Assembly: GCA_963836235.1 (NCBI GenBank)
Contig: CAWIIP010000001.1
Location: forward strand, 384,001 to 448,000
Direction of reading: 5' to 3'
Source of the DNA: an uncultured Pseudomonadota bacterium
GTDB taxonomy: Bacteria; Oederibacteriota; Muellerivitia; Muellerivitales; Muellerivitaceae
Length of the DNA: 64,000 bases
The notes below the pieces were generated by a model. That model saw only the letters and a program-made list of their open reading frames with translations. It was not told where the DNA came from and made no database searches. Positions 21,292 to 48,827 of this stretch are shown here, piece after piece. The position numbers and the translations under genes are program-made. How positions within the stretch are numbered: the stretch's first letter is position 1; each line of letters starts with the position of its first letter.

Positions 21292-21328
21292 GTTGCACAC
21301 TATCCTTTTTGCGACAGGCATGTGCAGG
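21292..21328 (-). CRISPR. CRISPR-like 37-bp repeat, cas-distal copy
   Basis: Minus strand CCTGCACATGCCTGTCGCAAAAAGGATAGTGTGCAAC, identical to 47426-47462. Confidence 0.8.
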
Positions 21329-22281
21329 TTCCTTTTTTCGGGCGGGATGAATTTGAAACCTAGTTTTCGATAAACCTCTTCCTCCGTTTTTCCGGCGACG
21401 TATTTCCCCGATTTGTCATATAACCCGTACTCGTTCAACTTGAGCCCCTTGCTGATGGCCATTTTTCGCAACGTTATGTTGTGTTGTTTATTCCCCGTGA
21501 AATAAATCATGGCCGCGCCGAAGGACTCCCCGCCGAACACCCGCAAATCCACCTGCAGGCCGTTATCCAGTATCACCTCCGACTTCTTGGGGCCGTGGAG
21601 GACGACCTTTCGCACGATAGGAAGGGTCGTAAAGGCTTCCATGACCGCTTCCGGCTGATCGGAGACTACTAGGAGGTCGATATCGCCGATGGTTTCCTCC
21701 TTGCGCCGCAGGGACCCTACCAATTCCACCCGTTCCACCTCCCCCATTCGCTTTAAGGCCAAAAGGATTTTATTGGCCGAGGGCAGGACTTCCTCCCTCG
21801 GGTGGCGGTCCTGGTGGGCTTTTTTAATCCCCAAGTTCGCGGCGATCTTCTCCTCGCTTTGGGGGCCAAAACCCCGGATGGCGGCCACCTTGTGTTCCAT
21901 GACGGCGGCCTTCAGGTCGGACGGGGAATGGATGCCATGGTGGTAGAGGCTCTCAGCTCGGTAGGGCCCCAAGCCCGGCACTTTCATGAGGGCCGTTATC
22001 CCCGTAGGCAGGGTTTTTTTCAGTTTTTCGAACTCGGGGATTTTGCCGGTCTCCAGGAATTCGACGATTTTCTTTCCCAACCCCTCGCCGATTCCGGGTA
22101 TTTCTTCCAGGCCCTTAAGCCCGCCTTTATTGTAAATTTTCCGGACGTCCTCCCCCAAAACCTGTAAAGAACGGGCGGCGGCGCGGTAGGCGCGCGGCTT
22201 CCACTCCACGTCCTCGATTTCCAGGATTCCGGCCATGTCATTGAAGATTTCGGCGATTTCACAGTTGGTGCTGGTTGTCAT
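21329..22281 (-). pseudogene. polX: DNA polymerase X (PolX core), interrupted at the repeat; no PHP domain
   Basis: AYRAAA, IPGIG HhH, GSLRR..ETIGDIDLL, YFTGNKQHN, LNEYGL, FIPPEKR; the frame continues through the repeat with no stop. Confidence 0.85.
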
Positions 22282-22285
22282 GGGA

Positions 22286-23035
22286 TTAAAACCGCGACGC
22301 CCAATAGCGTCCACGTTTCCTTTTTTGGTTTTCCGCAGAGGAAATGCCGCCAGGAACAAGATTTTCCAGTCCCAGTTTTGAATAATATTCCGTAATACCC
22401 AGTGGGGGGTTCCACCGAGGGTTGGCGGCTAGGATGTCGGTCCGGGTTGTTATGGTAGAGAGAGGGACAGTCTTGGAACGGGCATATGCCACAAATCTTC
22501 CGGAAGCTGTTTTCAGGCCGATTTCAATGAAGTAGCTTCCCGATGGTTCCTTAAATTCCAGGTAACTGTTCATTTGGCCTGATTCGACCTTGATCTCCTC
22601 CACCAATTCATCAATACCCCCGGGAACCATCCGAAGGACTCTCAAAACCATGTTGCTGTCCCAGTACTCCCCTCCCAGCTGTTTTTTCATGGTCTCCAAA
22701 CTTTCAGAGGCAACCTCCCAATAAACAAAAACGCAGTAAGGATCACGGACAAAAGCCACCACCCGGGTTTCCCCGTGCCGTTGAAAAGGCCTGAAGTAAA
22801 AATGCTTTGGAGGTATGGCGGCGAGACTTTCGGGCGCGCTCATGGATATCATTTCACGGCTTTGGCTACCCATTATGGTTTTGGCTTCGTTTTTCTTATG
22901 GATTGTCCGGTAATCCTTTTCATCCCCTTCTTTTGAGTGGACGGCGGGTGGCTTGCGGGGAACACGAATCCCTTGGGCATATTTGGCCTTAGTGGATGAA
23001 TTGGATGACTTCTTAGTTTTTTTATTTTTCTCCAT
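22286..23035 (-). CDS. DUF4912-like protein
   Basis: ETRVVAFVRDPYCVFVYWE ... YFIEIG....GRF...ARS pattern. Confidence 0.7.
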   Translation of the reverse strand: MEKNKKTKKSSNSSTKAKYAQGIRVPRKPPAVHSKEGDEKDYRTIHKKNEAKTIMGSQSREMISMSAPESLAAIPPKHFYFRPFQRHGETRVVAFVRDPYCVFVYWEVASESLETMKKQLGGEYWDSNMVLRVLRMVPGGIDELVEEIKVESGQMNSYLEFKEPSGSYFIEIGLKTASGRFVAYARSKTVPLSTITTRTDILAANPRWNPPLGITEYYSKLGLENLVPGGISSAENQKRKRGRYWASRF

Positions 23036-23069
23036 AGAATCCGCCTCTTTTTGGTTTTCCCTTTTCCTA

Positions 23070-23765
23070 CTAAAAACCCTTCCATCTCACGACCTGTTCC
23101 ACGGGCCTGCGGGGGCTCAGGGATTCCCCAGGCCGACTTTTTTCCGTCCCGTAGCCCATGGCGATGCCGAAAACGATGGAGAGGTGCTTCGGAATTTCCA
23201 GCTCATCCCGGATGAGGCTGGGATAGGACACCAGCATTATGGCCGGGGCCGTGTCTACCCCCTTGGCCTTTGCGGCCAGCATGAGGCTTTGGGAATAAAG
23301 CCCAAGGTCGAACATGGACCAGAAACCCAGGGTTTTTTCCATGCAGAGGTAAAGCACCACCGGCGCGTTGAAAAACTCGAAATTATGGACCCGGTGCTCA
23401 AGGTCGTCCGTCGTGTCACCCGGGTGGATGCCGTATTTTATTTTGTGGAGGGCCATGATTTCCCGCCGGCGCTCCTCCAAATCGTGGGGCCAATGGTGGG
23501 TAAGAGGGAAATCCGGCCCCGGGGCTATATTCTTTTTGAAATTCCCCATGAAGGCCTCCCGCAATCGGTGCAAGGGCGCGCCCATCGCGACGAAAACCTC
23601 CCAAGGCTGGGTATTGGCCGTGGAAGGCGCCCGGTTGGCCGCCTCCAGGATGGATCGGACCGTCTCCCTGGAAAGGGGATCCGGCTTGAATTCCCGGCAG
23701 GTGTACCGGCTTTGAAGCGATTCCAGAACACCTAAGGTTGTTTCTTTTTTTAGGTTCACAGCCAT
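23070..23765 (-). CDS. Nitroreductase family protein
   Basis: SRYTCREF, APSTANTQPW, FFNAP. Confidence 0.9.
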   Translation of the reverse strand: MAVNLKKETTLGVLESLQSRYTCREFKPDPLSRETVRSILEAANRAPSTANTQPWEVFVAMGAPLHRLREAFMGNFKKNIAPGPDFPLTHHWPHDLEERRREIMALHKIKYGIHPGDTTDDLEHRVHNFEFFNAPVVLYLCMEKTLGFWSMFDLGLYSQSLMLAAKAKGVDTAPAIMLVSYPSLIRDELEIPKHLSIVFGIAMGYGTEKSRPGESLSPRRPVEQVVRWKGF

Positions 23766-23816
23766 GGTTTTCCTCCTGAAAAATTAATTACAGCTATCGC
23801 TTTGCCCCGGGCGGCC

Positions 23817-25706
23817 CTACGAGCTTTTCACCTTCTCCTTTGTGGGGCTTTCCAACAAAAGCTTGTCGAGATCGGAACGTTCCAACGTTTCCTTCGAAAG
23901 CAATTCCTTTGCGATCCGCTCCAAGGCTCCCCGCTTGGAACTCAGGATTTCCTGGGCCCGCTGATATTCTTCCTCCACCAGTTGCCTGACTTCCCCGTCA
24001 ATAGCCTTGGCGGTCTCCTCGCTGTAATTGCGCTCCTCCCCCTGGCCCAAAGGCGTATTGAGGTATTTCAGCTCCAACGAGAGGCCGAAAGTCTGGGGCC
24101 CCAACTTGGCGCTCATGCCGTACCGGCACACCATCTGCCGGGCGGTTTCGGAAGCCCGCTCCAGGTCGTTCCGGGCGCCGGTGGAAACGTCCCCGAACAC
24201 CAGTTCCTCGGCAGCCCGGCCGCCGAACATGACGCACAAGCGGTCCTGCAGTTCCTCCTTGGTCATCAGGTGCCGCTCCTCGGTGGGAAGCTGCAGGGTG
24301 GCCCCCAGGGCCCCGATGGACCGGGGAATGATGGTCACCCGGTGGACCGGGTCGGCCTTGGGGACGGATAGGGCCGTCAGGGCGTGCCCCGCCTCGTGGT
24401 AGGCCACCCGGCGTTTTTCCTCCTCACCCATGACGGTGGATTTCCGCTTGAGCCCCAGTTGGAGCCGGTCGATGGCTTCCTCAAAATCCGGTAAAGCCAC
24501 TTCCGCCACGCCCCGGCGGGCGGCGGCCAGGGCGGCCTCGTTGACTACGTTGGCCAGGTCTGCCCCTACCATCCCCGGCGTGCGCTTGGCCAGGACCTCC
24601 AGGTCCGTTCCCGGGGCCAGTTTCACCTTGCGGCTATGAACCTTCAGGATTGCCAAGCGGCCCTTCAGGTCCGGCGGGTCCAGCACCACCTGCCGGTCGA
24701 AACGGCCAGGGCGCATCAGAGCCTGGTCAAGTACCTCGGGCCGGTTGGTGGCGGCCATCAGGATGACTCCCCCACTGGCATCGAACCCGTCCATCTCGGC
24801 CAAAAGCTGGTTCAAGGTCTGGTCCCGTTCATCGTTGGACCCCGAGAAACCGATGCCGCCCCGGCTCTTGCCGATAGCGTCCAATTCGTCGATGAACACG
24901 ATGCAGGGCGCCCGACCCTTGGCCTGCTCGAAGAGGTCGCGCACGCGGGCCGCCCCCACGCCCACGAACATTTCCATGAACTCCGAACCCGAAAGGGCGA
25001 AGAAAGGCACGTCCGCCTCCCCCGCCACGGCCCGGGCCATCAGTGTCTTACCCGTGCCCGGCAGTCCCACCAAAAGCACGCCCCGGGGTATCCGGGCTCC
25101 CAGGGCCAGGTACTTCTTGGGGTGCTTCAGGAAATCCACCACTTCCTTTAATTCGTCCTTGGCTTCCTCCAGCCCGGCCACATCCTCGAAAGTGGCCTTC
25201 TCCTTTTCCTCCCGCTCATGGAGCTTGGCCCGACTTTTCCCGAAACTGAAGGGGCCCGCCGCGCTGCGGCTCACCCGCCCTGCGACCCAGGTATAAAGGA
25301 GGAACATCAAACCGATGGGCAGAAGCCAGTTGGAGAGGAATTGCTGGAACCAGTTGGGCTTGTCGCTTTTCCCGGTGACCTGCACTTTCCAGTCCAATAA
25401 AAGCTTCATCAGGGAAGTCTGGTCCACTCCCGAAAGCTGGTTGGTGATGACGGTTTCGGTTTTATCGGGGTCCTTGTAGGGAAATCCCATCTTGGCCTCG
25501 GCCACCAGTTGGGACTCGCCCCACTGGACGCTTTGAATCTTTCCCGAATCCGCCAGTTGCAAAAACTCGTTGTAGGACACCGTCCGGGGCCCCGGCGTGA
25601 AGAATATCTGGGCCAGCCAAAGGAAGAAAAACATCATCAGGAAATAGGTAAACCAGGAAACGTTGGAAAAATTAAATTTTGCGGGGCGGACGGGTTGGTC
25701 GTTCAT
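23817..25706 (-). CDS. ftsH: ATP-dependent zinc metalloprotease FtsH
   Basis: Two TMs, [19 protein letters not shown]. Confidence 0.95.
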
Positions 25707-25718
25707 GGAAGACCTCCC

Positions 25719-26078
25719 TCAGGTGGACGGCGAAAGAAAAAAACGTCCGCAAGCCACGAAGAGGGATAAGGACATGAGGGCGAAAGTGACCCCCGCTTCC
25801 CCAATCTCATGGCGCCTCAAGCGGAAACGGACAGCCAAAACCATGATGACGGCAATGCCCAAGGCGGCCAAAGGCGTCAACCAGGGAAAGAGCCGGGCGG
25901 CCGGGGGAAGGAGTAATCCTCCGGCCCCCAAAATCTCGCTGACCCCGATGAAAAGAAGAAGCCCCACGTCGCCCAAACCCTGGGCCTTCATGGTTTCGGG
26001 CTTGAAGATCTTCAAAGACCCATCAATTAAAAAAATGAGGGCCAACAGAACCTGGGCGATCCATAACAAAGTATTCAT
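25719..26078 (-). CDS. DoxX-like membrane protein
   Basis: LWIAQVLLA.IF...G..K, IG..EILGA.GLLLP. Confidence 0.8.
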   Translation of the reverse strand: MNTLLWIAQVLLALIFLIDGSLKIFKPETMKAQGLGDVGLLLFIGVSEILGAGGLLLPPAARLFPWLTPLAALGIAVIMVLAVRFRLRRHEIGEAGVTFALMSLSLFVACGRFFLSPST

Positions 26079-26492
26079 AAGCCCCCCCGTTAAAAGGCTT
26101 CTCCCCACCGGGTTATTCCCTACCGCTTATTTGCAATCGACACCGCAATGAAATTTGCCGCGCGACATCATTCCCTTGCTCTTCAAGACTTTCCCCCCGC
26201 ATCCCGCGCAGGTTTGTAAACTTTCTTGGCTTTTGCCTTGGCTTTTTTCATCTAACCCTCCTTTTGATAGGAACATTCAAACGTCCCTTGTCATTTATCT
26301 TAGGCAAAACTCCATCCGGGATTTATGACCTAAGGCAGGTTAAACGAGGATTTTTATTCAAAAAAAAGCCCCGGAAATACCAGCCTTCCGGGGCAAGGAC
26401 TTGAACCTTTAATTTACGGCGCTGTTCAGTCTCAGTTGGCATTAACCAGAGGTAGCGGACGAAGTTCAAAAAGCAAAACTGCTGCCGACCGA

Positions 26493-26675
26493 TTAAACAT
26501 TGGCCGTGTCAAAAAAGTTGACGCCGGCCTCAAAGGCTTTTTGGATGATGGACCTGGCCTGGTCCTCGCCCAAGGCCCATGCATGGGTACCGCCCTGGGG
26601 GTTGCCGAAACTCATGCAACCCAGGCAAAGGCGCGATATTTTCAAACCGGTGTTTCCTAAACGGACATATTCCAA
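26493..26675 (-). pseudogene. N-terminal fragment of an aldo/keto reductase
   Basis: YVRLGNTGLKISRLCLGCMSFG...GVNFFDTANV then stop at 60 aa. Confidence 0.85.
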
Positions 26676-26705
26676 GAAAAGCCTCCCCGCGAAATTAATT
26701 CCGTC

Positions 26706-27557
26706 TCAAACGCCTTGAGTGGGCCAGCCCGACTCCTCCATGGCCATTTCGGCGGCCTCGCGGCCGGTAAGGGTCGTCCGCCATTTCGTCGCCACGATCC
26801 GGTATCCGGTCACCCCGTCGGATTCGGGCGAAGAGAGCCAAATCAGCGGCGGAACCATGATGGCGGCGTCCAGCAGGGACGCCCGCAGGCCCTCCCGCGC
26901 TTCCACCGGGATCATTCCGGTGAGGACCGCTCCACCGGGAAGAAGCTCGTTCACGGTCACCCCCGTTCCGGCCAGATCCTGGGCCCAGATAATTGTCGCC
27001 GACTCAAGCGCTGCCTTGGAGGGGCCGTAGGGCGAGAACCCCCGTCGGCGTTTCGTCTCGTGATTGATCGAGATGTTGATGATCCGGCCCCAGCCAGCCT
27101 TGAGCATGATCGGCACGGCGCTTCGCGCCATCAGGAAGGGGCCGTTGACGTTGGTATCGATCACCATGCGCCAAGCCTTCGGATCGACCATCCAGAACTG
27201 GGTGGGCTTGGTCATGAAGTTCGGGCTGACGTGCTTCATGCCGCGCCCGGCGTTATTGACCAGGATATCGAGCCGCCCGAAGCGCTTGACCGTATCCTCC
27301 ACGACCCGGCCACAGTCCTCTTCCCTCGTGACATCGGCGATGAGGGGCAGCACCTTTTCCTCACCGCATTCCTGGCTGACTTCGCGCGCGAGGGACTCGA
27401 TCTCCGGGCGTTCAAGCGCGGCGGTGGCCACCACATTGGCCCCCGCGCGGGCAAGCCCGAGTACCATGGCCCGCCCCAGTCCCCTTCCCCCGCCCGTGAC
27501 GATGGCCACCTTCCCCGAAAGCGTTCCCAATTCCATTTTTTTCTTCTCCATGTTCAA
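26706..27557 (-). CDS. SDR-family oxidoreductase
   Basis: TGGGRGLG, NNAG, YGPSK. Confidence 0.92.
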   Translation of the reverse strand: MNMEKKKMELGTLSGKVAIVTGGGRGLGRAMVLGLARAGANVVATAALERPEIESLAREVSQECGEEKVLPLIADVTREEDCGRVVEDTVKRFGRLDILVNNAGRGMKHVSPNFMTKPTQFWMVDPKAWRMVIDTNVNGPFLMARSAVPIMLKAGWGRIINISINHETKRRRGFSPYGPSKAALESATIIWAQDLAGTGVTVNELLPGGAVLTGMIPVEAREGLRASLLDAAIMVPPLIWLSSPESDGVTGYRIVATKWRTTLTGREAAEMAMEESGWPTQGV

Positions 27558-27581
27558 CGGCCCGCCAAGAGGCCTAACGGA

Positions 27582-28070
27582 TCAAAAATAATCCAAGGGG
27601 AGCGTTTCCCGTGGTTTGATATGCGGCACATATTTAGGGGTTTTCATGGCCAAACCCCGAGCGTGAGCCGTTTCCTCGTCCGAAAGGCCTTTTTGAATCA
27701 TAAAATCCTGCTTCGGATAGATCAGGTCCGGGTCCTTGATCGAATCCCGGTTGGCCTTGAAGATCGAAGGCCATTGGAAATTATCCCCGTAAATATCCCG
27801 CTTGCCCGCGATGCCCCAAAGGGTGTCATGGCGGACCACTCTATAGCTTAAGGAAGGAACCGGCGCGGGCTTTTCCGCAGCCACCTTCTCGGTGGTGGCT
27901 GGCTGTTTGGGAACTTCCGTGTTTTCAATCCGCTTTTTACTGTTGCAACCGTAAATCAGGAATCCAACCGCCCCCATGGTTAAAAAAAACGCCGCGATTC
28001 CTCTGCGGTTTATCCCCCCGGCTTTATTTCGCGGTTTTCGGACTCCTTCTTTTTCCATTTTCCTGGCCAT
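27582..28070 (-). CDS. LysM-domain lipoprotein
   Basis: Lipobox-like IYGC; YRVVRHDTLWGIA....YG....W..IFKAN..IKDPDLIYP. Confidence 0.85.
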   Translation of the reverse strand: MARKMEKEGVRKPRNKAGGINRRGIAAFFLTMGAVGFLIYGCNSKKRIENTEVPKQPATTEKVAAEKPAPVPSLSYRVVRHDTLWGIAGKRDIYGDNFQWPSIFKANRDSIKDPDLIYPKQDFMIQKGLSDEETAHARGLAMKTPKYVPHIKPRETLPLDYF

Positions 28071-28144
28071 GGTGACCCTCCTTATTTTCCGTGCTCGATA
28101 ACAACAATATTAACTTTTAAACCCGTTGCGCCTTATGACCAGGA

Positions 28145-28429
28145 TCAGCTTGTTTTTAGTTCCATTTTTTTATAACCAGCCTCGAAAAATTCCTTGAAGG
28201 CTTTTCGGGCTTCTCCGGCGTCATTTCCGTCGAATGTCAATTCCAACTCCGCGCCGTGGGTGGCGCCTAGGGCCAGCAGGCCGAGGATGCTTCGGGCATC
28301 GGCGGGGCCACCCTTGTTCCGGATGGATATGCGACTCGAGAAGCGGGAAGACATCTGGACCAGCTCGGCGGCGTCCCTCATGGAAAGGCCTACGGGGTTT
28401 TGGACCGACATTTTTTCAGTGATTCTCAT
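28145..28429 (-). CDS. HPr-like protein lacking the active-site His
   Basis: NPVGLSMRDAA in place of GLHARPA; ADARSILGLL retained. Confidence 0.8.
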   Translation of the reverse strand: MRITEKMSVQNPVGLSMRDAAELVQMSSRFSSRISIRNKGGPADARSILGLLALGATHGAELELTFDGNDAGEARKAFKEFFEAGYKKMELKTS

Positions 28430-28586
28430 AGATAATCTCCTTCGAACGACGATAAAGCCAATGGCCGGAAAACCGCCTGGCCGTTGTGGGTTTGTTCTAT
28501 TGGATTCTTCCGTGCCCGTCAAAACAAATCCCCCAGCGGTGACCGCAGGGGGATGTTTCTTCACAACAGGAAAGAGAAAGTACGGG

Positions 28587-28820
28587 CTACCGGATTATTT
28601 GGTGGGGGGGGGTCGAAGGTGTCTCGACAGGCGTTTCTTTTTTCTCCTCCTTTTTAGCCTTCTTCACTTTCTTCTTTTTCTCCTTCTTCACCGCCTTGGC
28701 TGGAGCGGGAGTGGCAGAAACGGCGGGAGTGCCCGCCGGGTCCGGGGTTTCATCGGCCAAGATCATCCCGGTGACCCCCATAAAAATAACGGCCATCATC
28801 GCGACTAGTAAACGCTTCAT
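28587..28820 (-). CDS. Small secreted Lys-rich protein
   Basis: AGGAGG RBS, signal-peptide-like N-terminus, Crp-type box upstream, hairpin downstream. Confidence 0.65.
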   Translation of the reverse strand: MKRLLVAMMAVIFMGVTGMILADETPDPAGTPAVSATPAPAKAVKKEKKKKVKKAKKEEKKETPVETPSTPPHQIIR

Positions 28821-29088
28821 GAAATCCTCCTTAAGGATCAGAATCGCGATAATTTAATCCAAAAAGGCCGGGATCTTTATGATCTTGGACAGGATAATGA
28901 TTTTTTTGGAAAAAGTGACAATCAGTCAAAAAAAGGGCTAGTGGACGATCGATCATTGTTCTCAAAGGAAAAGCCATTTTTAAATTCGAGCCAAATCATG
29001 ACTTAAATCATAAAGGCCAAAACCGGACTCAATTAACATTCCTCCACTCAAGACAACCATTCGAGAAGAAAAACAGAGGAGGTTATTA

Positions 29089-30350: not shown

Positions 30351-30362
30351 CACAGAGTTTTC

Positions 30363-30707
30363 CTAATGGACTAGTTTCCGGTGGTGGGACGGATGGAAAG
30401 CGGCGGCATTTAAATTGTGATCATGCTCCAGAAGAAACGACTTCATCTTTTGAAGGAACGGATAGATTTTTTCAAAATCCAGGTCCTGCATTCCATACCA
30501 GGCTTCGGTATCGGCTTCCTCGAGGGGGGCGAAATAGTCGTACCATTCCCGTACTAATCCCTGATCTTTGAGGTTGGCTAAATCTAAATCTTTCCGCAAT
30601 CCGCACACCAGGGCATGAAAATTGACCCTCCCGTTGTAATAATCCCGGATCAACAGGGTCATTTTTTTCCATAGGTGGAATTGGGAATTATTCATTTCAT
30701 CCTCCAA
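30363..30707 (-). CDS. Hypothetical protein
   Basis: ORF downstream of crp, GGAGG before MNNSQ. Confidence 0.5.
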   Translation of the reverse strand: MEDEMNNSQFHLWKKMTLLIRDYYNGRVNFHALVCGLRKDLDLANLKDQGLVREWYDYFAPLEEADTEAWYGMQDLDFEKIYPFLQKMKSFLLEHDHNLNAAAFHPSHHRKLVH

Positions 30708-32692: not shown

Positions 32693-32711
32693 TATTAGTC
32701 GGGAGTAGCCC

Positions 32712-37811: not shown

Positions 37812-37861
37812 TTCATCCTCTTGCGGCTTCAACCGCCAAGATTGTTCTTGTTAAGTAACTA

Positions 37862-38272: not shown

Positions 38273-38303
38273 GGCTAATCCCTTAGTTGAAAAGACATTT
38301 CGG

Positions 38304-40392: not shown

Positions 40393-40476
40393 AACCTTTC
40401 AAGCCTGGATAGGCCCAGGAGGACATTGTAATTCATTCCTCCATTGGACGTTCCGGCTCGATTCAAAGAGTCGTAT

Positions 40477-41091
40477 CTACGCCGTTATCCAGTTTAAAAT
40501 CCGTGGCGGATTTCTCGGCGTCCTGGGGGAATCCTCCGACGGGTATCCGACGATGATGGGAAGGACCGGGAAATGCCCTTCCGGTATTCCCAATTTATGT
40601 TTCATTGAATCGGTCCGCAGAATGTCCCAAGCCAGCCCGATGGGACAAGTACCCAGCCCCATTCCATAAGCGGCCAACATCAGGTTTTGGCAGGCTAGGT
40701 AGCAATCCGCCTCGGGAACTAACCCTTCCTGTGTAGCGCAAACGATAATGAGGGTTGAAGCGCCATAGAAAATATTGAAACCCGGGTCCAGGAAACGGCT
40801 GGGCCCGTGTTGGGCTTCGGACTTCCACCTGGGATCTCCGGCCAGCGTCTTCTTAGCCTCGTTGGAAATTCCCCGTAGGAGAACCGCATCCTGGACAACG
40901 GCAAAGCTCCAGGGCTGGCTGTTGACAGCGCTGGGAGCTTGAACGGCGAATTCCAAGAGGATTCCCACGGTTTTTTCGTCAACCGCCTTGGCCGTGTAAT
41001 GGCGGACGGCCCTCCGGTCACAGATCGCATCGAGAACGCTGATCGAAGCGCCTGTCTTCTTACTTTTTTTCGCTTCATCTAAAAGTGTCAT
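40477..41091 (-). CDS. Nitroreductase family protein
   Basis: RRAVRHY, APSAVNSQPW, NLMLAA..MGLGTC. Confidence 0.9.
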   Translation of the reverse strand: MTLLDEAKKSKKTGASISVLDAICDRRAVRHYTAKAVDEKTVGILLEFAVQAPSAVNSQPWSFAVVQDAVLLRGISNEAKKTLAGDPRWKSEAQHGPSRFLDPGFNIFYGASTLIIVCATQEGLVPEADCYLACQNLMLAAYGMGLGTCPIGLAWDILRTDSMKHKLGIPEGHFPVLPIIVGYPSEDSPRTPRNPPRILNWITA

Positions 41092-41296
41092 ATTGTTTCC
41101 TCCGACTCAAGCTGAATAAGTCGAGAAATGAATTGAAGAACTTGTATTAGGATAATTACTAAATGGAGCCTCTCATGTGACCTCCGTCATACCCATCCGT
41201 TTTTTTATGGGATATTCTTTTTAGAAACCTGCGCCGAAAAGGTCATAAGGACCGGTAAATGGAGCCCGTATTAATACATAAAATTTTCGGGTTGAC

Positions 41297-42334
41297 ATGG
41301 GAGATGAACCAAAACTTCAGAATGTTCCCATGAATAAAAAGACAATGCAGGCCATGGTGTTGGCGGCACAGGGACAACCCCTGAAACCCCTCTTTCTTCC
41401 CAAACCAATTCCAGGACGGGGCCAAGTACTTGTACGGGTCCTCGCTTGCGGCCTATGCCGCACCGACCTGCACGTGGTGGACGGCGACCTGAAGGAGCCC
41501 AAACTGCCCCTTGTTCCGGGCCATCAAGTGGTGGGCGTAGTGGAGAGCTTGGGCCCCAGCATAACGGCCGTTCAAATCGGTGAACGCATTGGTATCCCCT
41601 GGCTTGGCGGCAGTTGCGGCTCATGCGATTACTGCCGAAGCGGAAGGGAAAACCTTTGCGACCATGCTCGATACACCGGCTATCAATTGGACGGCGGCTT
41701 CGCCGAATACTGCCTGGCGGATGAGCGCTTTGTTTTCCCCATTCCCAAGTCCTACCCTGACCCGCAAGCCGCGCCCCTTTTATGCGCGGGCCTGATTGGC
41801 TACCGCTCTTTACGGATGGCGGGAAATGGAAAAAAACTTGGATTTTACGGTTTCGGCGCGTCGGCCCACCTTTTAATCCAAGTCGCGAAATACCAAGGGC
41901 GTGAAGTTTATGTCTTTACCCGCAAAGGAGATACCGAAAGCCAGGCCTTTGCCGAAAAACTGGGGGCCACGTGGGTGGGAACATCGGGTGAAACCCCGCC
42001 AAAACATTTGGATGCGGCCATCATCTTCGCACCCGTTGGGGAATTAGTGCCGATGGCCCTTAAAGCGGTTGCCAAGGGCGGGGTGGTTGTCTGCGCGGGC
42101 ATCCATATGAGCGATATCCCCTCTTTCCCCTATTCCATCCTTTGGGGCGAGCGGCAGGTGCGTTCAGTGGCAAATTTAACCCGCCAAGACGGAGAGGAAT
42201 TCCTGAAGTTGGCCCCCCAAATCCCCATCAAAACGCAGGTGAAAATCTATCCTCTTGATCAGGCTAATGAGGCTTTGGCCGACCTTCGCGCGGGCCGCCT
42301 TCAGGGGGCTGCAGTATTAAGAATCGGGTCTTAA
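41297..42334 (+). CDS. Zinc-dependent alcohol dehydrogenase family protein
   Basis: CRTDLH, PGHQ, CGSCDYC...ENLC, LLCAG. Confidence 0.93.
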   Translation: MGDEPKLQNVPMNKKTMQAMVLAAQGQPLKPLFLPKPIPGRGQVLVRVLACGLCRTDLHVVDGDLKEPKLPLVPGHQVVGVVESLGPSITAVQIGERIGIPWLGGSCGSCDYCRSGRENLCDHARYTGYQLDGGFAEYCLADERFVFPIPKSYPDPQAAPLLCAGLIGYRSLRMAGNGKKLGFYGFGASAHLLIQVAKYQGREVYVFTRKGDTESQAFAEKLGATWVGTSGETPPKHLDAAIIFAPVGELVPMALKAVAKGGVVVCAGIHMSDIPSFPYSILWGERQVRSVANLTRQDGEEFLKLAPQIPIKTQVKIYPLDQANEALADLRAGRLQGAAVLRIGS

Positions 42335-42425
42335 ATCCCCAAATGATTAACAAGTTATCCACAATTTTATCCTCTTAATCCCCAATCATGCAGGCCGGAA
42401 CGATGCCCTCCCTTTGGCGCCATCC

Positions 42426-43238
42426 CTATTCCAGCATTCCCTCCAAGTAACGAATTGCTTTACGGGCGCGGCGGAGCAACCTCCATTCTTTCCGCTCCAG
42501 GATTTCAAAGCCACCCTTCTTCCCTTCTGCGGTTATCCCGAGTCGTTCGAAGGATTTTTCCACTCCTTGCCAATCCCTCAACTGTCCCAGGGCATACTGG
42601 ACCTCGTTGGTGGCCTTGAGAAGTTTCTTCCTCTTAGGAGGATGCAGGAAGTCAAACAGTTCCAGGTCGTAACGGAGGCGTTTGGCTTGGATGCGCAGAT
42701 GATGCAAGACTTTTCGTTTGGGGCCCCCCTGGTCATAGTTCGAAATGGATTTTTGAACCCGTTCCATCTCCTTACAAAAAGAAGCCTCAACCTTTTTTTG
42801 CAATTTACTCCTTTTCATCTTTCTCTCAATCTCTTGAAACACCATGGCAATGTCCGAAAAAAACAGGTCGAAAGCCTTATTAACCAGGATGGCTTGGAAG
42901 GCTCCCTCCTTCTTCCTCCTTCGGGCGGACCCGCTGGTTGCCTGGCGTTTTTTGGAAAATCCCTCCGACCGCAATATTTTCGAGGACACATGTGACTCCC
43001 TCAGGGGCCCTGTCAAACCTTGCAAGTATTTTATTTGTTCGATTTCATGTTCGAAACGCCGTTTTTCCAAAAGATGCTTTTCCAAGCGCAGTACCGCTTC
43101 GATGCGTCTTAAGGAAGTCCTGAAATCGTGGAGGGTGCGTGGGTCAATCCGTTTTATCAGCTTTCGACGGCACACTTTTCGAGCGGCGCTAGCATCAATA
43201 GCCTCTTCAAATGCCCGCTCGCGATGGTCTACCGGCAT
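42426..43238 (-). CDS. CHAD domain protein
   Basis: LHDFRTSLRR and LHHLRIQAKRLRY.LE, LG.LRD. Confidence 0.85.
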   Translation of the reverse strand: MPVDHRERAFEEAIDASAARKVCRRKLIKRIDPRTLHDFRTSLRRIEAVLRLEKHLLEKRRFEHEIEQIKYLQGLTGPLRESHVSSKILRSEGFSKKRQATSGSARRRKKEGAFQAILVNKAFDLFFSDIAMVFQEIERKMKRSKLQKKVEASFCKEMERVQKSISNYDQGGPKRKVLHHLRIQAKRLRYDLELFDFLHPPKRKKLLKATNEVQYALGQLRDWQGVEKSFERLGITAEGKKGGFEILERKEWRLLRRARKAIRYLEGMLE

Positions 43239-43753
43239 CAGGCCACCTCTTCGCGAAGATCGATTTTCCCTGTCATGGCTGCCGAAATTAACGTTTGGCG
43301 ATATTCTCTAAGTTTTTCAATTTGAGTTTTGATTTTTCCAGCGGGTTCATCAAGATGCTGATTTCCACCCCTTTCATTTTTGATGGCAAGCAAATCTATT
43401 CTCGTTGTTTTTTTATCCAAGAAAGAAACAATTTCTAATTGTTCTTTCGCCTCAGGAATATAAATTTCTAAATCTCCCAATTTATCGCCAGTTAAGTGTG
43501 CAATTGTCGCCCTATTACACAAAACTTCAAACCAACCAAACCAATCCATAGTTTCGAGTAAATATTTTAAAAACTTCAAAGAGTTCTTTTTTTTGCTTCG
43601 AATTCTGTGAAGAGCATTTTGAATTATGCATTTATTTGGAACATTTTTTAAAATGGAAGCTCGACCTACTTCTCCGCCCTCACAAACAAGCAAGTCCCCA
43701 TCTAAAACTTCAAATTTCTCTAGTTCGTTTTTATTTGTCCACATTTCAGGCAG

Positions 43754-45177
43754 GAAGTTGTCCCGCCGCCAGTTGAATTAGTGAAGTGACGGCCCCTGGT
43801 TTGCCTACCTTAGGCCACAGCCGTTTCTGCGTCAACGTCGTTCGCCGTGCACCTCCTCAAAGCCGCCTGCAAAATTGGAATTTCCCTGTATCCTCTGAGG
43901 CGTTTGAAAGCTCCTTCCGCACGCATCAGGCCCGCTGTCGCCCAACGCTGGCGCATGTCCCCACCCCTCCACCGCTTCACCCGCACCGTCACCTTACCCG
44001 CCACACTGAACGCCGACTCGATGGGGTTTGTCGTCACCAAGCTTTTCGCCAACAGGGCCGGTAGACCCAGCTTGGCCACCGTCAGGGTCTCTTCGAGGCC
44101 TTCTCTCAGGCTTGCGGCCGCGTCCTGGTTGATCCGGGTGAGCCAGGCGCCCAGAGTGTTGAGGCGCTTCTCGCCTTCACGCCAGTCCTTGCAGGCGTAA
44201 GCCTCCGCCATGCGGCTTCGGATTTCGTCGTGGTGCTTCTTTGCCACGTAGCCCAGCACGTTTCGGATCTTGTGCTGCTGGCAGCGCTGAATTTGGACAT
44301 TGGATCCACACAGCCGCTTCACCGCCGCCGCCAAAGCCTTGGACCCGTCCAGTACGAACAGCATGGGGGTTTCGAAGCTTAAGCCCCGATCTCTCAAGTC
44401 CGTCAACAGATCGGTGCAGACCTGGGCATTCTCCGTGGCCCCTTGGCGCAGACCCAAAATGACCTTCTCCCCGGCCCCTTTCCCGGCTTTCACCCCCAGG
44501 GCCACCACCAGCATCTCTCCCCCATAGGGCACCCCGTCGATGAACACTGCCACGAACTCTTGCCCCTCAAAACGTCTTTCTGCAAGGGTTTTCATCTGTT
44601 TGGCCGAGGCCTTCACGAAGCCACGGCTCACACTGGAGCGCTTCATCCCAAACCCTTTAGCCAAGGGCTCTAGGCACCCTTCGTACTCTCGGCAGGACAC
44701 CCCCCGCACCATGCGCCGAAGGGCGTTTTCAGGCATGGCTTCGGGGTTTTGGAGTTTCTGATAGGTCTGAAGAAGGACTTCACCGCCCTCTTTCATCCGC
44801 GCCCGGGGCTTCTGGAGGGGCACCTTGCGTCCGGCCAGTACAACCGTCCCACCCTGGCTTCCCCAACGGCTGGCCGATCGCCCCAGCTGGCGCTGGTGCA
44901 TCGGCCCGCACAGGTCTTGGATTTCCGCTTGTAGCAACTCCTGGGCCGCCAACAACCCCAACTGACAAGCCAGGCTGTTGAGCCCATCCTGAATCATCGC
45001 CAATCGCTCTTCCCGGCTTAACGGCAGTTGTCCAAAATTCTTGTCGCCTTTCGAGGTGTTACGGTGTAACTTTCTCATGGTGGTTTCCTCTCTTTTTTAA
45101 AAAAATTGGTCACCCAGACTTTACAGTCTGGGCAGAGGAGCCACCACCTTCTTTTCAACTACGAACGGGACAATTTC
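43754..45177 (-). mobile_element. IS256-family element with 8-bp target-site duplication
   Basis: IRs GAAGTTGTCCCG..AGTTGAA / TTCAACT..CGGGACAATTTC; TSD TCAGGCAG at 43746-43753 and 45178-45185. Confidence 0.92.
43810..45078 (-). CDS. IS256-family transposase
   Basis: VFIDG, VLDGSKAL, QRCQQHKIRN, TTNPIES. Confidence 0.92.
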   Translation of the reverse strand: MRKLHRNTSKGDKNFGQLPLSREERLAMIQDGLNSLACQLGLLAAQELLQAEIQDLCGPMHQRQLGRSASRWGSQGGTVVLAGRKVPLQKPRARMKEGGEVLLQTYQKLQNPEAMPENALRRMVRGVSCREYEGCLEPLAKGFGMKRSSVSRGFVKASAKQMKTLAERRFEGQEFVAVFIDGVPYGGEMLVVALGVKAGKGAGEKVILGLRQGATENAQVCTDLLTDLRDRGLSFETPMLFVLDGSKALAAAVKRLCGSNVQIQRCQQHKIRNVLGYVAKKHHDEIRSRMAEAYACKDWREGEKRLNTLGAWLTRINQDAAASLREGLEETLTVAKLGLPALLAKSLVTTNPIESAFSVAGKVTVRVKRWRGGDMRQRWATAGLMRAEGAFKRLRGYREIPILQAALRRCTANDVDAETAVA

Positions 45178-45411
45178 TCAGGCAGATCAGTCACGTCTAC
45201 CTTGTACCACAGAACATGAACGGCTTTTAAATAAGGTACGAGAATATCGCTTTCGTCCTTTCGTTCAGATTGGAGCATTTTTCCAAGTTGTATCGAATAT
45301 TCAAACTTGATCTTTGTTTTTTGCCAATGACTTGGAACCCGATCCACCCATTCAACGGACGAACTTTTATATTCGGGATAGGGTTTGTATCTGTCTTGAC
45401 TTGGATGGGTG

Positions 45412-46122
45412 TTATTTTCCAATTATTTTACTTTCAAATATTTCCAATTTAGTTAACCACTCATTAAAATGCAGGCATTCGCCCCTGATTCTGGCCAACC
45501 CGATTCTTTGAGTGACCAACGGTCCGTAAATCTTTTTTTGATATCCAGGGAAAATATCCGAAAGTCTTTTAGATGGAGCCGTTTGTGGGTTGTCGTTAAT
45601 GTCTTCGGGAGTCTCAAATTTTCCCTTTATCTCAGCCAGTTTTTTTTCTTTCCCCGTGTCCAACAGCGCCCCAGCCGTTTCACCGGGGTCCACAAAAAGC
45701 ATGGCTTCGAACTCATGGACCTCAAAATTAGGGATAAACCTTCCATCACCGATATCCTCCTTGAACTTTTGTTCCAGGAACTTTACCCGTTCGATACCGC
45801 GCTTTGAGGTTGAATGATAGCCTGGAAAATCGGAAGGGAGGCCGTAATAATCAATCATGGTGGTGACACAAACCACATCCGTGTCCTTCAAAAGATTCAT
45901 CAGGTCGTACCTGACTTTTCCATATGAAACAATGCCGCCCTTAAAATCCGGCCCCTTTTTCACCCGCTTCGTGGTGGCCAGTTTTGCGATTAGGAAAATC
46001 CCTTTCAGAGCAAAATAGGGGCCTAGTACGTCCCGGACGAAGGTTTCTTCCGTTTGCCCTTCAGCCAAGACCAGGATTCGGCTCAATGGGTTGGCCTTCC
46101 GCCCAGAATGTTTTTCTCCCAT
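45412..46122 (-). CDS. DUF4276-like (TOPRIM/RloB-related) protein
   Basis: EGQTEE.FV, DYYGLP, HEFEA, PE.IND...APSKR; overlaps the upstream AAA gene. Confidence 0.75.
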   Translation of the reverse strand: MGEKHSGRKANPLSRILVLAEGQTEETFVRDVLGPYFALKGIFLIAKLATTKRVKKGPDFKGGIVSYGKVRYDLMNLLKDTDVVCVTTMIDYYGLPSDFPGYHSTSKRGIERVKFLEQKFKEDIGDGRFIPNFEVHEFEAMLFVDPGETAGALLDTGKEKKLAEIKGKFETPEDINDNPQTAPSKRLSDIFPGYQKKIYGPLVTQRIGLARIRGECLHFNEWLTKLEIFESKIIGK

Positions 46123-47171
46123 AGATCGCCCAATCCGTATTCCTCAAGCCAATCATCCATCTTGGCTTTCTCCAACTTGGAAAAGACCGATTGTCCTTCC
46201 TGCCGATCAACAACAACAATATCGGCTGGCTCAAACTGGTTGACAAGTCCAACGGACTGGGTAGATGCGATGATTTGTGTTTTAGTGGAAGTGCTTTTAA
46301 GAAGATCAGCGAGCAAAGCAACGGCGTAGGGATGAAGGCCAAGTTCGGGCTCATCTAGCAAAATGACGGATGGTAGTTCCGGTTGCAACAATAGTGTGGC
46401 CAGACAGATGAACCTTAAGGTACCGTCCGATAGGGTATGGGCGTTGAAATAGTCGTCCGAACCCTTTTGGTGCCATTCCAAAAGAATTTTTCCCTTATTC
46501 AACTTGGAGGGGCGCAAAAAGAAATCATCAAAGAATGGTGCCGCCAATCGCACGGTTTCAACGATATTTTTATAATTGCCTTTATGGCGTTCCTGTAGGA
46601 AGTAAAGGAAAGCCGCGAGGTTTGACGCATCGGGCCTGAAAACCTCGTTATCATCTATTTCTCCCGTTTGTTTCATCTTGGAGCTTTCGCTTGTGTCATG
46701 AAAGTGGTAGACACGCCAGCTTTCCATGTTTTTTAAAACATGATTGACGGTCGCTTTTTGCTTAGCCAAAGTATGTAGTTTTGTTTCCTTGTGCCCTTCA
46801 CCGAGGCCTTCCTCATATGGGCGTTTATACCCGGCACCTTGAAAATAGGCGGATTCTTCCAGGAAAATCAGCGAATCATCCGTTGAGGGGCCCAATTTGC
46901 AGGAATATCCATTCGGATTGAAATCACAATGTATAAAAATTTCATTGGTTATTTTGGAGCCGAAGTACAAGAACGTGTTCGCGCCGCCTGATTTACCGAC
47001 AAAAACCTGGAGGTTTTTTAGGACAATTTGGTTTAAAAGCTTAAAGAGAGAAATAAAATTTGACTTCCCTGCCCCGTTGGGACCAATGAGAACATTTAAG
47101 GGTCTTAGTTTCAAATCCATATCTTTTATGGATTTGAAACCTTGAACTTTAACGCTTTTAAGTGCGTGCAT
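46083..47171 (-). CDS. AAA_21/ABC-type ATPase
   Basis: GFKS, IGPNGAGKSN, LSDGT, LLDEPE.GLHP. Confidence 0.88.
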   Translation of the reverse strand: MHALKSVKVQGFKSIKDMDLKLRPLNVLIGPNGAGKSNFISLFKLLNQIVLKNLQVFVGKSGGANTFLYFGSKITNEIFIHCDFNPNGYSCKLGPSTDDSLIFLEESAYFQGAGYKRPYEEGLGEGHKETKLHTLAKQKATVNHVLKNMESWRVYHFHDTSESSKMKQTGEIDDNEVFRPDASNLAAFLYFLQERHKGNYKNIVETVRLAAPFFDDFFLRPSKLNKGKILLEWHQKGSDDYFNAHTLSDGTLRFICLATLLLQPELPSVILLDEPELGLHPYAVALLADLLKSTSTKTQIIASTQSVGLVNQFEPADIVVVDRQEGQSVFSKLEKAKMDDWLEEYGLGDLWEKNILGGRPTH

Positions 47172-47247
47172 GATAATCTCCGGGATTCGATGCGTTTATT
47201 ATAACCCAGCTCTTTGGGTGCTTTAAACAAATCGGCTTTTGAAATTT

Positions 47248-47424
47248 TTATAATTCCTTTAATTCCTCAGCGATCTCGGCTTCCAACTGTTTAATCTCCG
47301 CCTCAATGACATCCAAGGGTCTTATGGTCTGATACTTGTAAAAATGCCGAGTGAAGGGAATTTCATAACCTATCTTGGTCTTACCATCGTCAATCCAGGC
47401 ATCCGGCACGTGTGGCAGAACTTC
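47248..47424 (-). pseudogene. hsdM: 3' fragment (last ~58 aa) of a type I R-M methyltransferase
   Basis: Manual translation EVLPHVPDAWIDDGKTKIGYEIPFTRHFYKYQ..RPLDVIEAEIKQLEAEI; begins 1 bp after the 37-bp repeat, no start codon. Confidence 0.85.
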
Positions 47425-47425
47425 A

Positions 47426-47462
47426 GTTGCACACTATCCTTTTTGCGACAGGCATGTGCAGG
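47426..47462 (-). CRISPR. CRISPR-like 37-bp repeat, cas-proximal copy
   Basis: 22 bp downstream of the cas2 stop; TGCACA...TGTGCA terminal dyad and TGCAAC 3' end; identical to 21292-21328. Confidence 0.82.
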
Positions 47463-47484
47463 AGCCTGCAATTATTGGTGTTTT

Positions 47485-47820
47485 TCACCGTTCCGCCGAA
47501 TTCGGCGTGATTTGGATAAGTTCAAACGCAGTTTCAATGTCGACATCATCTTTCTTAGAACTAAGCGTACCACCGAAAACCGAATCTTCAAAGCACGACC
47601 GACAGAGCGTACTGATAAAAAACTTTTCGGTCTTCTTTGCGAAAGCCCCCTTGAATTTATTCTCGAGTTTTTCCCGTTCTTTTGAATACAATTTTCCGAT
47701 ATACATATTCCGGAAAACCGGCTTGAGACCATAATTCTTGCACCACAGAACCGCCTTGTCCCGATGCCGCCAGTCGCGCGTTTCCCACGATACTAGGGTG
47801 ATGGCATTGAAATTGTTCAT
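47485..47820 (-). CDS. cas2: Divergent Cas2-like protein
   Basis: 111 aa, ATGA overlap with cas1; Cas2-like pattern (R.K....KNYGL.....Y.G.L...E ... LC..C) but SWET in place of YDI. Confidence 0.7.
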   Translation of the reverse strand: MNNFNAITLVSWETRDWRHRDKAVLWCKNYGLKPVFRNMYIGKLYSKEREKLENKFKGAFAKKTEKFFISTLCRSCFEDSVFGGTLSSKKDDVDIETAFELIQITPNSAER

Positions 47821-48827
47821 GATATCGAAAAAAGTTTTTCCGCACGAAACGGGTTGTACTTGTCCTCCTTTTCGACAAAGTGACGTGCCAACGCCCTAAT
47901 CTGGTTATCTATGATCTGCTTAAGAGTATATTGTTTCCCCCGCCATGCCGTCGTTTCATTCAACCGCCTCATGATCGCCCCCACCACGACGCTTTTTCCC
48001 TCAGGCGATAACAGATATTGCCCAACCGCGGTTTTTTCAAAATATTTCCGTTGGCTCAGTTTCTTTTCTATGAAAAGCGGGAAAAGCACCGAGTCGACGA
48101 TTGGTACGCGGAATTCTTCGACAAGATCGAGAACGAGGGCAGGCTTACCATAGCGTTCACTGTGGTAGAGGCCGAGATATGGATCAAGACCGACGTAAAG
48201 GCATGCCCGTTCGACTTCATTGTAAAGGATGCCGTAACCATAATTCAGTACGCTGTTAAACTGGTCCCTGCCTTGTGGTTTTCGGCCCGGGAATCTATAG
48301 AATTTTTTTAACCCGCTGAAATATTTGTCCGCGATGTATCCTTCCGTACCAAGGAGTTGCTCCTTGCCTTTCTCCGAACACGGGACATTGTCCAAGACAT
48401 CAAAAAGGGTCTGCGCTTGTAAGAGCTCGGTCCCCACATCCTTTTTATATCGGTACGCGAGATATCGGAGTAGATCGAGCTGATTAGCGCATTTGCCCCG
48501 CACTAATTCTTTTGCGATTTTGAACGATCGCTCAAGCGAAGTTGACGCTTCCAGTTGCGCTTTACGAAGACTCGCCAACCCTTTTGGTTCGCTTGAAAAT
48601 AGTCTTCCGATGGGCTTGCCAAAAGAACCGAGATAGACGATATCAACATCGTGCTCAATCGCGAGCTGAACTGCGTGAGTCGTGAGCGAGGCCGGCCGCA
48701 GTATGACTATTTTCTCCAGTCTGTGGATTGGGTATTCTTTTTTCTCTTTAACTTTCGGAAAAGAAAGGACGATGCGCTCACCATTTACGCCGATCTTGGT
48801 ACCGTAAGTATCAATAAGCAAGTCCAT
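47817..48827 (-). CDS. cas1: CRISPR-associated integrase Cas1
   Basis: LLGTEG..A..YF, D.FNS.LNYGYGIL, GLDPY.G.YH, LVLDLVEEFR; catalytic E/H/D-E positions present. Confidence 0.93.
   Translation of the reverse strand: MDLLIDTYGTKIGVNGERIVLSFPKVKEKKEYPIHRLEKIVILRPASLTTHAVQLAIEHDVDIVYLGSFGKPIGRLFSSEPKGLASLRKAQLEASTSLERSFKIAKELVRGKCANQLDLLRYLAYRYKKDVGTELLQAQTLFDVLDNVPCSEKGKEQLLGTEGYIADKYFSGLKKFYRFPGRKPQGRDQFNSVLNYGYGILYNEVERACLYVGLDPYLGLYHSERYGKPALVLDLVEEFRVPIVDSVLFPLFIEKKLSQRKYFEKTAVGQYLLSPEGKSVVVGAIMRRLNETTAWRGKQYTLKQIIDNQIRALARHFVEKEDKYNPFRAEKLFSIS

Follow-up and report, generated by a model that had tools for sequence, protein, structure and literature searches.

Introduction

Every Cas1-Cas2 integrase studied so far, to our knowledge, measures its substrate and stores about 30-40 bp of DNA between the repeats of a CRISPR array. 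Here we describe a locus with the anatomy of such an array and with inserts of up to 26 kb. It lies in a 64,000-nt stretch of the genome of an uncultured bacterium (assembly GCA_963836235.1, contig CAWIIP010000001.1, positions 384,001 to 448,000; hereafter the window, in whose coordinates positions are given unless a contig or locus is named), where a cas1-cas2 pair is followed on the minus strand by a 37-bp repeat (R), an insert of 26,097 bp (S1) and a second, identical R. A preliminary description of the window, drawn up from its letters alone, had proposed that this Cas1-Cas2 captures multi-kilobase fragments of DNA. Having compared the locus with related genomes and contigs, we regard it as rather probable that the pair integrates DNA at R whatever its length, with a duplication of the repeat each time.

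The locus resembles CRISPR adaptation modules (the nearest Cas1 models are generic and I-B-like) in its Cas1 motifs, its Cas2 fold and the position of the repeat a few bases after the cas operon, and it resembles CRISPR arrays in having identical, co-oriented direct repeats, unique DNA copied from elsewhere and a conserved leader-repeat junction. It differs in that CRISPR spacers have a fixed length of ~30-40 bp, whereas the inserts found here are anything from 30 bp to 26 kb long (median 1.5 kb; 2/58 gaps are no longer than 60 bp), and in that the arrays are short (1-11 repeats), no effectors lie beside the copies and the cas1-cas2-repeat unit appears to be mobile. Casposons are characterized by PolB, terminal inverted repeats and a 14-15-bp target duplication. 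The likeness to them consists in a Cas1-family integrase, apparent kb-scale insertion with target duplication, some tRNA-adjacent copies and a seemingly self-mobile unit, but this unit is made up of cas1 and cas2 only, without PolB, terminal inverted repeats or a 14-15-bp target duplication; Cas2 is present, Cas1 is closer to the structure 4n06 than to 6opm, and the inserted DNA is arbitrary rather than the element itself. Integron cassette arrays, in which an IntI tyrosine recombinase gene and an attI site adjoin a row of whole, mostly promoterless genes that each end in an attC, likewise hold kb-scale units between short hairpin-capable direct repeats in a variable, gene-bearing region, but attC sites are imperfect and 57-141 bp long, whereas the repeats of the present arrays are identical and 37 bp long and the units are often cut fragments in either orientation. 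Single-strand or rolling-circle transposons with hairpin ends (IS200/IS605, IS91 and Helitron-like types) are alike only in having hairpins at both ends and in keeping the 3' end in partial copies, and the unit has no HUH transposase.

CRISPRCasFinder has limits on spacer length, and array finders with such limits would miss a whole class of cas-linked loci. The accessible portion of a 2025 classification survey in which arrays were detected by CRISPRCasFinder (PMC12669027) does not mention arrays of this kind, and that of PMC13059738 does not describe them. Within the full-text literature searched, from which subscription journals and supplements were absent, the accessible text likewise gave no account of kb-scale inserts between cas-linked repeats.

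The cas1-cas2-R locus and its repeats

The source genome (G000; other G numbers denote genomes of relatives, and L numbers denote loci) consists of five contigs totalling 3.97 Mb with zero N, and its sole match to PF01867 is the cas1 gene of the window (Table 1). On the minus strand cas1, cas2, 22 bp, R, 26,097 bp and R follow one another, and both this order and the coordinates of the preliminary description were confirmed. R (GTTGCAC...GTGCAGG on the plus strand) occurs exactly twice in the window, where 100 shuffles of the window gave an expectation of none, and it closes a unit of 1505 bp (48930 to 47426) that comprises a hairpin (H), 40-odd leader bases, cas1, cas2 and R and has sharp ends.

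Cas1 contains the motifs LLGxEG, GxxH and DLxEEFR, in which E, H and D/E, which we take to be the catalytic residues, align with those of A. fulgidus Cas1 (4n06). Among solved structures it scores 124 bits against this CRISPR Cas1 and 94 bits against 6opm, presumably the chain of a casposase. The 111-aa protein encoded next to it has zero Pfam and zero NCBIfam matches, which points to a divergent Cas2 subfamily, and the subfamily is rare (57 of 1.84 billion cluster representatives match at E<=1e-10) and kept in all aligned clade loci. A model built from an alignment of ten relatives predicts a ferredoxin-like beta-alpha-beta-beta-alpha-beta fold with a core pLDDT (predicted local distance difference test) of 85-94, and the top PDB matches of this model are Cas2 proteins (2ivy at 1.9e-5, 3exc and 8d3l_E). 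The initial reading of this open reading frame (ORF) as cas2 is thus sustained by the PADLOC Cas2b assignment and by the Cas2-like fold, on which we take it to be a divergent Cas2, and from the Cas1 motifs and the modelled Cas2 fold the enzyme pair looks intact. The best relative of Cas1 was 33.5% identical in a plasmid collection and 30.3% identical in a phage collection. A consensus scan of the unit for promoters and terminators gave zero promoter-like sites and 3 terminator-like sites (2.0 expected), and no Rfam family matches R.

R had been described as a single pair, which proved too few: G000 holds 9 exact copies and one with 2 mismatches, 10 in total. The third copy of this array lies 24,728 bp past the second window copy and 3.4 kb to the left of the window, so that the array reads cas1-cas2-R-26.1 kb-R-24.7 kb-R, its second insert being called S2 below. 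Three further copies stand on contig C2, with gaps of 68 and 1327 bp, and three on contig C4, with gaps of 971 and 920 bp, and no cas genes lie near either cluster. All borders of R in the genome are sharp and all flanks differ. An array scanner found no ordinary CRISPR array in G000, no effector genes were seen beside the unit copies, and in the genome as a whole no match to RAMP proteins was found and models of Cas3_core and Cas9 matched only below cut-off, types IV, V and VI not having been searched. Two proteins encoded in the C4 inserts have no close relative in viral contigs.

Long inserts recur in related loci

Relatives of Cas1 with 52-72% identity occur in metagenome-assembled genomes labelled as members of the Patescibacteria group and on metagenome contigs. 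A homologous 37-mer follows cas2 at a distance of 3-22 bp in 11/13 scored loci of this clade, and in the remaining two, L080 and L083, the repeat copy is diverged or overlapping. The sequence of R co-varies with Cas1 across the range of 52-100% identity. A dispersed repeat unrelated to cas1, which the preliminary description had named as a way for its idea to fail, does not fit this linkage. Among 60 relatives searched with up to 3 mismatches, R was found in five genomes, all of the same family, and near-identical Cas1 in four of these five and in zero genomes without R. A sequencing-adapter artefact was also considered and was rejected, as R co-varies with Cas1 and occurs in assemblies of several projects.

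Wherever the unit or R is present in the family, the copies of R stand hundreds to thousands of bases apart and share one orientation. Spacing was measured in 24 arrays, which come from 8 family genomes, from 5 Patescibacteria-type genome loci and from one metagenome contig and contain 58 gaps between co-oriented repeats. The gaps range from 30 to 26,097 bp with a median of 1531 bp: two are no longer than 60 bp, five fall between 61 and 300 bp, 14 between 301 and 1000 bp, 28 between 1 and 5 kb and seven between 5 and 15 kb, and two exceed 15 kb. Where clade relatives have further repeat copies, these are 140-4044 bp apart, and long gaps are also found on contigs of other projects (L075, L080, L088). 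The survey of Cas1 and Cas2 homologues that had been proposed as a check therefore does return kb-scale inserts repeatedly, and homologous loci with ordinary short-spacer arrays, which would have spoken against the proposal, were found by the scanner in 0/18 and 0/21 clade loci, while the same scanner was positive beside 5/7 distant Cas1 genes of the same phylum. At one locus (L124, G021:C12:142645-148687) spacers of ordinary size (30 and 38 bp) are mixed with inserts of 1077 and 2329 bp between copies of the same repeat; the first repeat there follows a remnant of the 5' leader of the unit, and cas1-cas2 is deleted.

Several features are signs that repeats are copied locally, as far as can be judged from the sequences. 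Neighbouring repeats are identical in 40/47 pairs, compared with 227/426 pairs drawn from different loci of one genome, and they are co-oriented in 58/59 pairs. Repeat variants are array-specific in G012, G026 and G030, and the bases GCT directly precede the cas2-proximal repeat in 10/11 clade loci and do not precede other copies.

Sources and ends of the inserts

The inserts are unique DNA, many of them end inside genes, and some carry whole operons. The clearest source is that of a 386-bp insert (L074:19088-19473), which is the reverse complement of a segment 136 kb away in the same 0.9-Mb genome (G061:C1:492486-492871) with 3 mismatches; the match extends from the first to the last base of the insert and stops at both repeats, and the source lies inside a 202-aa ORF. 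Two inserts in different genomes are nested, an 885-bp insert on G025:C3 (L132:1504-2388) corresponding to positions 44-928 of the 971-bp insert on G000:C4 (L131:1501-2471) with at most 1 mismatch. The pair stands in opposite orientation relative to R, the longer insert extends exactly 43 bp further at each end, and no terminal inverted repeat that could explain these end differences was found. Two inserts of G025 overlap by 1303 identical bp, in a stretch whose end borders on R in one of them and whose beginning does so in the second, and a further insert of this genome consists of cas1 codons 103-346, cas2 and the leader. An insert on G025:C15 begins and ends inside genes that are common in the family (76-90% identity), with alignments that stop at the repeat borders. 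Fragments copied independently of one another out of a shared pool of DNA would be predicted to give this pattern, and fixed-site cassette exchange would not.

Most inserts, among them those of G012:C6 and L080, have no source among the genomes searched, and of the insert of L083 only the two ends match the genome that holds it, in a tRNA-Ala region (92-95%). A comparison of GC content between inserts and flanks at five Patescibacteria-type loci gave varying values (37-55%) that decide nothing. At the junctions themselves R joins unrelated DNA: on its two sides stand, for example, a GmrSD_N fragment and a FecR protein, two cut frames that converge, or the polX frame of S1 and an unassigned frame. 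Since the two flanks are unrelated, R was not simply dropped into continuous genes, and this candidate explanation was set aside. Insert ends have a weak base bias: across 54 R junctions of G000, G012, G025, G026 and G030 the base five positions before R is A in 34/54, the base three positions before R is C in 1/54, and the base three positions after R is A in 28/54.

A proposed model of ruler-less integration and the evidence against it

The mechanism that we favour is an adaptation reaction that lacks the measuring step. Cas1-Cas2 would recognize the junction of leader and R, the two ends of a linear DNA would be joined to the two borders of R, and repair would then duplicate R, as in CRISPR adaptation and without measuring of the substrate. 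Repeated rounds would give R-insert-R-insert-R with one repeat orientation, and the stock of inserts would comprise genes of the cell itself, the cas unit and DNA of related bacteria, cut at arbitrary points and taken in either orientation. S1 and S2 (26 kb and 24.7 kb) would be the two inserts of this array and rank among the longest in a set whose median is 1.5 kb. What the sequences themselves display is the anatomy, its return in several genera and in remote Cas1 relatives, copied inserts whose likeness to the source stops at R, nested and inverted captures of a single source, and the Cas1 motifs and Cas2 fold. We infer that Cas1-Cas2 is what acts, that entry would be at the cas-proximal R, and that each long insert may have entered in a single step.

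The earlier proposal of multi-kilobase capture stands as regards long, copied inserts bounded in mid-gene, their recurrence and their sources. The 26 kb may have entered in one step, but the insert carries an IS256-family transposase and looks mosaic. The additional suggestion that the locus serves as a gene-acquisition system finds no support, inserts lying in either orientation and many being cut gene fragments. Together with the failure to find a RAMP, Cas3 or Cas9 effector, these properties speak neither for immunity nor for directed gene acquisition. The weakest point of our interpretation concerns purpose: with no effector found, we see in the array the by-product, or the store of cargo, of an integrase unit that is selfish, and not a working immune memory. 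Purpose or not, the process can move working genes, because S1 and S2 together hold ~45 genes, including those for FtsH, Hsp20, nitroreductases, phosphoketolase, acetate kinase and ATPase subunits.

If the model is true, measuring of length is no built-in property of the integrase, a testable model becomes available for the passage proposed to lead from casposons to CRISPR, in which arbitrary DNA is inserted with target duplication, and a compact two-protein system (~460 aa in total) exists for the insertion of long DNA at a chosen site. A bolder version, which we put forward tentatively and would not yet bet on, is that the locus is a living intermediate between casposons and CRISPR: a self-mobile Cas1-Cas2 that settles by hairpins (tRNA ends and repetitive extragenic palindromic (REP) sequences), inserts arbitrary DNA of 30 bp to tens of kb at its own R, which is duplicated, and builds effector-less, heritable libraries of DNA, self as well as foreign, that include whole operons. 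This intermediate would be a way in which genes are captured in nature and also an enzyme ready for use where long DNA is to be placed at a specific site.

Several observations weigh against integration by Cas1-Cas2. Known Cas1-Cas2 complexes measure their substrate, and we know of no precedent for one without a ruler. Insert ends are not simply random: of 66 such ends 45% border on a reading frame that is open for 100 codons or more, and for randomly chosen positions in the genome the figure is 71%. The hairpin of R is 79.9% paired, and its covariation is not above that of shuffles (99/500 were as high). As to the polarity of growth, no degenerate far repeat was found in any array, and G025:C16 has two R copies upstream of cas1. 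Of 15 partial unit copies 14 retain the R end, and in some the 5' end is retained as well, which suits a transposon with cis-acting ends better; the model needs the extra assumption of deletions adjacent to R. An IS lies inside S1, which may therefore have grown after entry, and S1 and S2 contain island-type genes shared with unit-adjacent DNA in G025:C16, so that some of the 50 kb may have come along with the unit instead of being taken up here. Finally, the public sequencing runs that are indexed include none with the flanks of the window junctions, the best share, 0.32, being that of the cas unit alone.

Mobility of the unit and competing explanations

The unit is 98-100% identical in G012 and G025, with three full copies in the latter, and 92-93% identical in G026 and G030. 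The five unit-bearing genomes belong to four genera, and their core genes are only ~72-83% identical to those of the window. Unit remnants were present in 8/30 family genomes, and the family as a whole has 7 full copies, 14 whose 5' part is missing and whose other end coincides exactly with that of R, and one whose 3' part is missing. Near-identity across genera, multiple copies and deletion derivatives are the signature by which we judge the unit itself to be mobile, and, speculatively, its movement may use the same integrase activity at hairpin targets.

This mobility feeds the strongest of the alternatives, which we nevertheless consider unlikely, namely that the unit is transposon-like, with the 5' hairpin region and R as its cis ends, that R copies mark the ends of elements that are whole, internally deleted or truncated, and that the arrays arise from nearby insertions, read-through mobilization of adjoining DNA and recombination, without any uptake of free fragments at R. 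The sharp ends of the unit, its 98-100% identity in three genera, its 3-4 copies in G025 and the retention of the R end in the partial copies all fit such an element, as do four of the 15 truncated or solo loci (L116, L118, L123, L121), in which 36-63 bp of the 5' end are fused to the 3' part, and the array of G000:C4, which is headed by H 9 bp before R. Casposons use tRNA-adjacent targets, and at three Patescibacteria-type loci (L074:9879-10022, L076:9857-9992 and L080:8307-8466) only 0-7 bases separate the start of the unit from the end of a tRNA gene before it (Arg, Gly and Ser, respectively). Most R copies in the arrays, however, have no unit remnant beside them, the flanks of five full copies show neither a terminal inverted repeat nor a target duplication, and transposition leaves unexplained both the 386-bp excerpt of a distant gene and the nested inverted pieces. 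It may hold for the movement of the unit without being the source of the arrays.

At the same three tRNA-adjacent loci a TTGACA box directly follows, and the distance from the tRNA end to the start of cas1 is 63-71 bases. Among truncated copies, cas1 of L098:1512-2266 is cut at residue 241 and joined straight to R, and cas1 of L101:9998-10721 begins at residue 98, beside a tRNA-Ile gene. The hairpin H is a REP-like palindrome (TGTCCAC..GGG.CCC..GTGGACA) that is not specific to the unit, with ~61 copies in the genome, and as such a dispersed palindrome it was rejected as a second repeat of the array. It is also found at 51859-51889, at 53465-53492 and at G000:C2:1193141-1201158, often clustered at a spacing of 0.6-2 kb, and palindromes of this type are frequent in G001, G005 and G010 too.

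Very improbable, in our view, is a third possibility, that R is an att-like site of an integron-like or other site-specific recombinase, which swaps circles at R and for which Cas1-Cas2 is a passenger. The kb-scale units between short, hairpin-capable and co-oriented direct repeats are in its favour, as are the R clusters without cas genes at G000:C2, G000:C4 and G012:C6. Yet no tyrosine or serine recombinase was found among the 44 Pfam-scanned window ORFs or beside the other G000 arrays, and no IntI-type recombinase in these 44 and 20 ORFs of the C2 and C4 arrays, four S1 ORFs of at least 90 aa not having been scanned. Inserts are often cut gene fragments and not whole cassettes, the same source DNA appears with different end points and inverted, and R keeps pace with Cas1 over the whole identity range and sits 3-22 bp after cas2. 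Site-to-site recombination, moreover, makes no new repeat copies. Integration of a circle through spacer-sized homology was rejected separately, the ends of S1 being unrelated and nothing being duplicated.

An assembly artefact, either a mis-join at a short repeat or the merging of short hsdM and polX spacers with their genomic targets, is barely credible. In its favour, no indexed run covers the flanks of the window junctions, and most family genomes are metagenome bins by their record titles. Against it, the same architecture recurs in 8 family genomes, 5 genomes of Patescibacteria or uncultured bacteria and metagenome contigs of other projects, G000 comprises 5 contigs with zero N, contigs assembled from the short reads of independent runs pass through R into DNA that is unrelated, and no ordinary R array exists anywhere in the genome that could have been collapsed.

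The contigs in question come from three independent DNA runs and one RNA library (four studies); all contain the unit and leave the window sequence at 47420-47426, and the three from DNA runs also part from it at 48929-48931, each into different DNA. Stretches of the window that these runs do not cover carry no information. The RNA library (X20, a metatranscriptome) has contigs on 47425-48226 with R between two other flanks, and it also holds two 151-base cas1 pieces identical to the window. Transcription may take place, though DNA carry-over into X20 would give the same contigs.

The two long inserts of the window

Table 1. Position, strand and supporting detail of the features of the window.
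Feature	Position	Strand	Detail
Unit 5' end, untranslated leader of cas1	48858..48930	-	homology to other unit copies stops at 48929/48930
Hairpin H, REP-like, first ~31-39 unit bases	48893-48931		~61 H-like genome copies
cas1, 346 aa	47817..48857	-	PF01867 3.2e-68; TIGR00287 250.9 bits (cut-off 71.7)
Divergent cas2 (predicted), 111 aa	47485..47820	-	4-base overlap with cas1; PADLOC Cas2b 1.9e-7
22-bp leader, cas2 stop to R, ends GGCT	47463..47484	-	read from sequence
R, cas-proximal copy	47426..47462	-	unit homology ends exactly at 47426 in all other copies
S1, 26,097 bp	21329..47425	.	unique in genome except weak paralogues
hsdM fragment, last 58 codons, begins one base past R	47251..47424	-	70-80% identity
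IS256/Mutator-family transposase in S1	43810..45078	-	PF00872 6.6e-33
polX fragment, pol-beta-like residues 1-344, cut at R	21329..22359	-	no PHP domain after
R, second copy	21292..21328	-	exact match
S2, window part	1..21291	.	total 24,728 bp, to third R at G000:C1:380527-380563

Both ends of S1 lie inside genes, as had been read from the letters alone (Table 1). At the cas-proximal end, the hsdM fragment matches the C-terminal ends of proteins of ~650-710 aa (typically ~670 aa) with PF02384 and PF12161, and it has no other copy in the genome and no match among solved structures. At the far end, the thumb and pol-beta domains of the polX ORF (22359-20770) end at residue 344, exactly where R begins; the frame stays open through R for 173 further codons without a Pfam match, and the DNA matches of polX relatives reach to 0-9 bases from the repeat boundary (query positions 1-10).

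Between these ends S1 holds ~24 genes. The hsdM 3' fragment is followed by an AAA_21 ATPase with DUF4276, the IS256-family transposase and an hsdS fragment; the middle encodes CHAD, ADH, two nitroreductases, an ABC-2 permease, a cyclopropane synthase, a hydrolase, PAP2 and hemerythrin, and the last part Hsp20, Crp, a radical SAM protein, DoxX, FtsH, DUF4912 and the polX 5' fragment. Some of the Pfam families relate to redox or stress, among them FtsH, Hsp20, nitroreductases, hemerythrin, DoxX, ADH and radical SAM, and the genes have patchy matches in family members, at 64-94% identity. The preliminary description had seen no phage-type integrase in the segment, and indeed no tyrosine integrase was found in the scanned ORFs; mobile genes are nevertheless represented by the IS256/Mutator transposase. 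A partial hsdS (43238-43744, covering Methylase_S profile positions 52-160 of 168) adjoins this transposase, and the region 43238-47424 has the appearance of a decayed type I restriction-modification locus made up of the hsdM end, AAA_21 with DUF4276, the IS256-family transposase and half of hsdS.

The window part of S2 encodes ATPase subunits, phosphoketolase, acetate kinase, a HAD hydrolase, glycogen phosphorylase, a sigma-54 activator, Crp and an IS256 copy. This last is part of an IS256/Mutator element of 1361 bp that has two 100% identical copies, at 19480-20700 of the window and at G000:C2:913860-915220, the former 0.6 kb from R in S2 and the latter 2.6 kb from the C2 repeat cluster.

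An allele without S1 had been suggested as a check, and the search for one was partly successful. On G025:C16, 17 bases past the R of the unit, ~19 kb of DNA is colinear with S2 (window 18281 to -1184, 74-90% identity) and there is no middle R, so that cas2-R meets S2-like DNA; the contig does keep a stretch of 2.3 kb that is S1-like (window 38760-41103). It may be read as a rough empty allele, which fits insertion of S1 with a repeat at the cas-proximal R. The genome of the same genus, G001, has no clean empty site, its two flanks lying on different contigs. From these comparisons S1 and S2 would be related island DNA that travels with the unit or is often taken up by it.

The metabolic island at 1-15215 also stands out by itself. 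Its counterpart, G025:C16:42439-62001, belongs to another genus, and the genes common to both genera are those for ATPase subunits, phosphoketolase, acetate kinase, HAD hydrolase and glycogen phosphorylase. The island is 85-90% identical between the two, compared with ~77% for core genes, which suggests that it was transferred recently.

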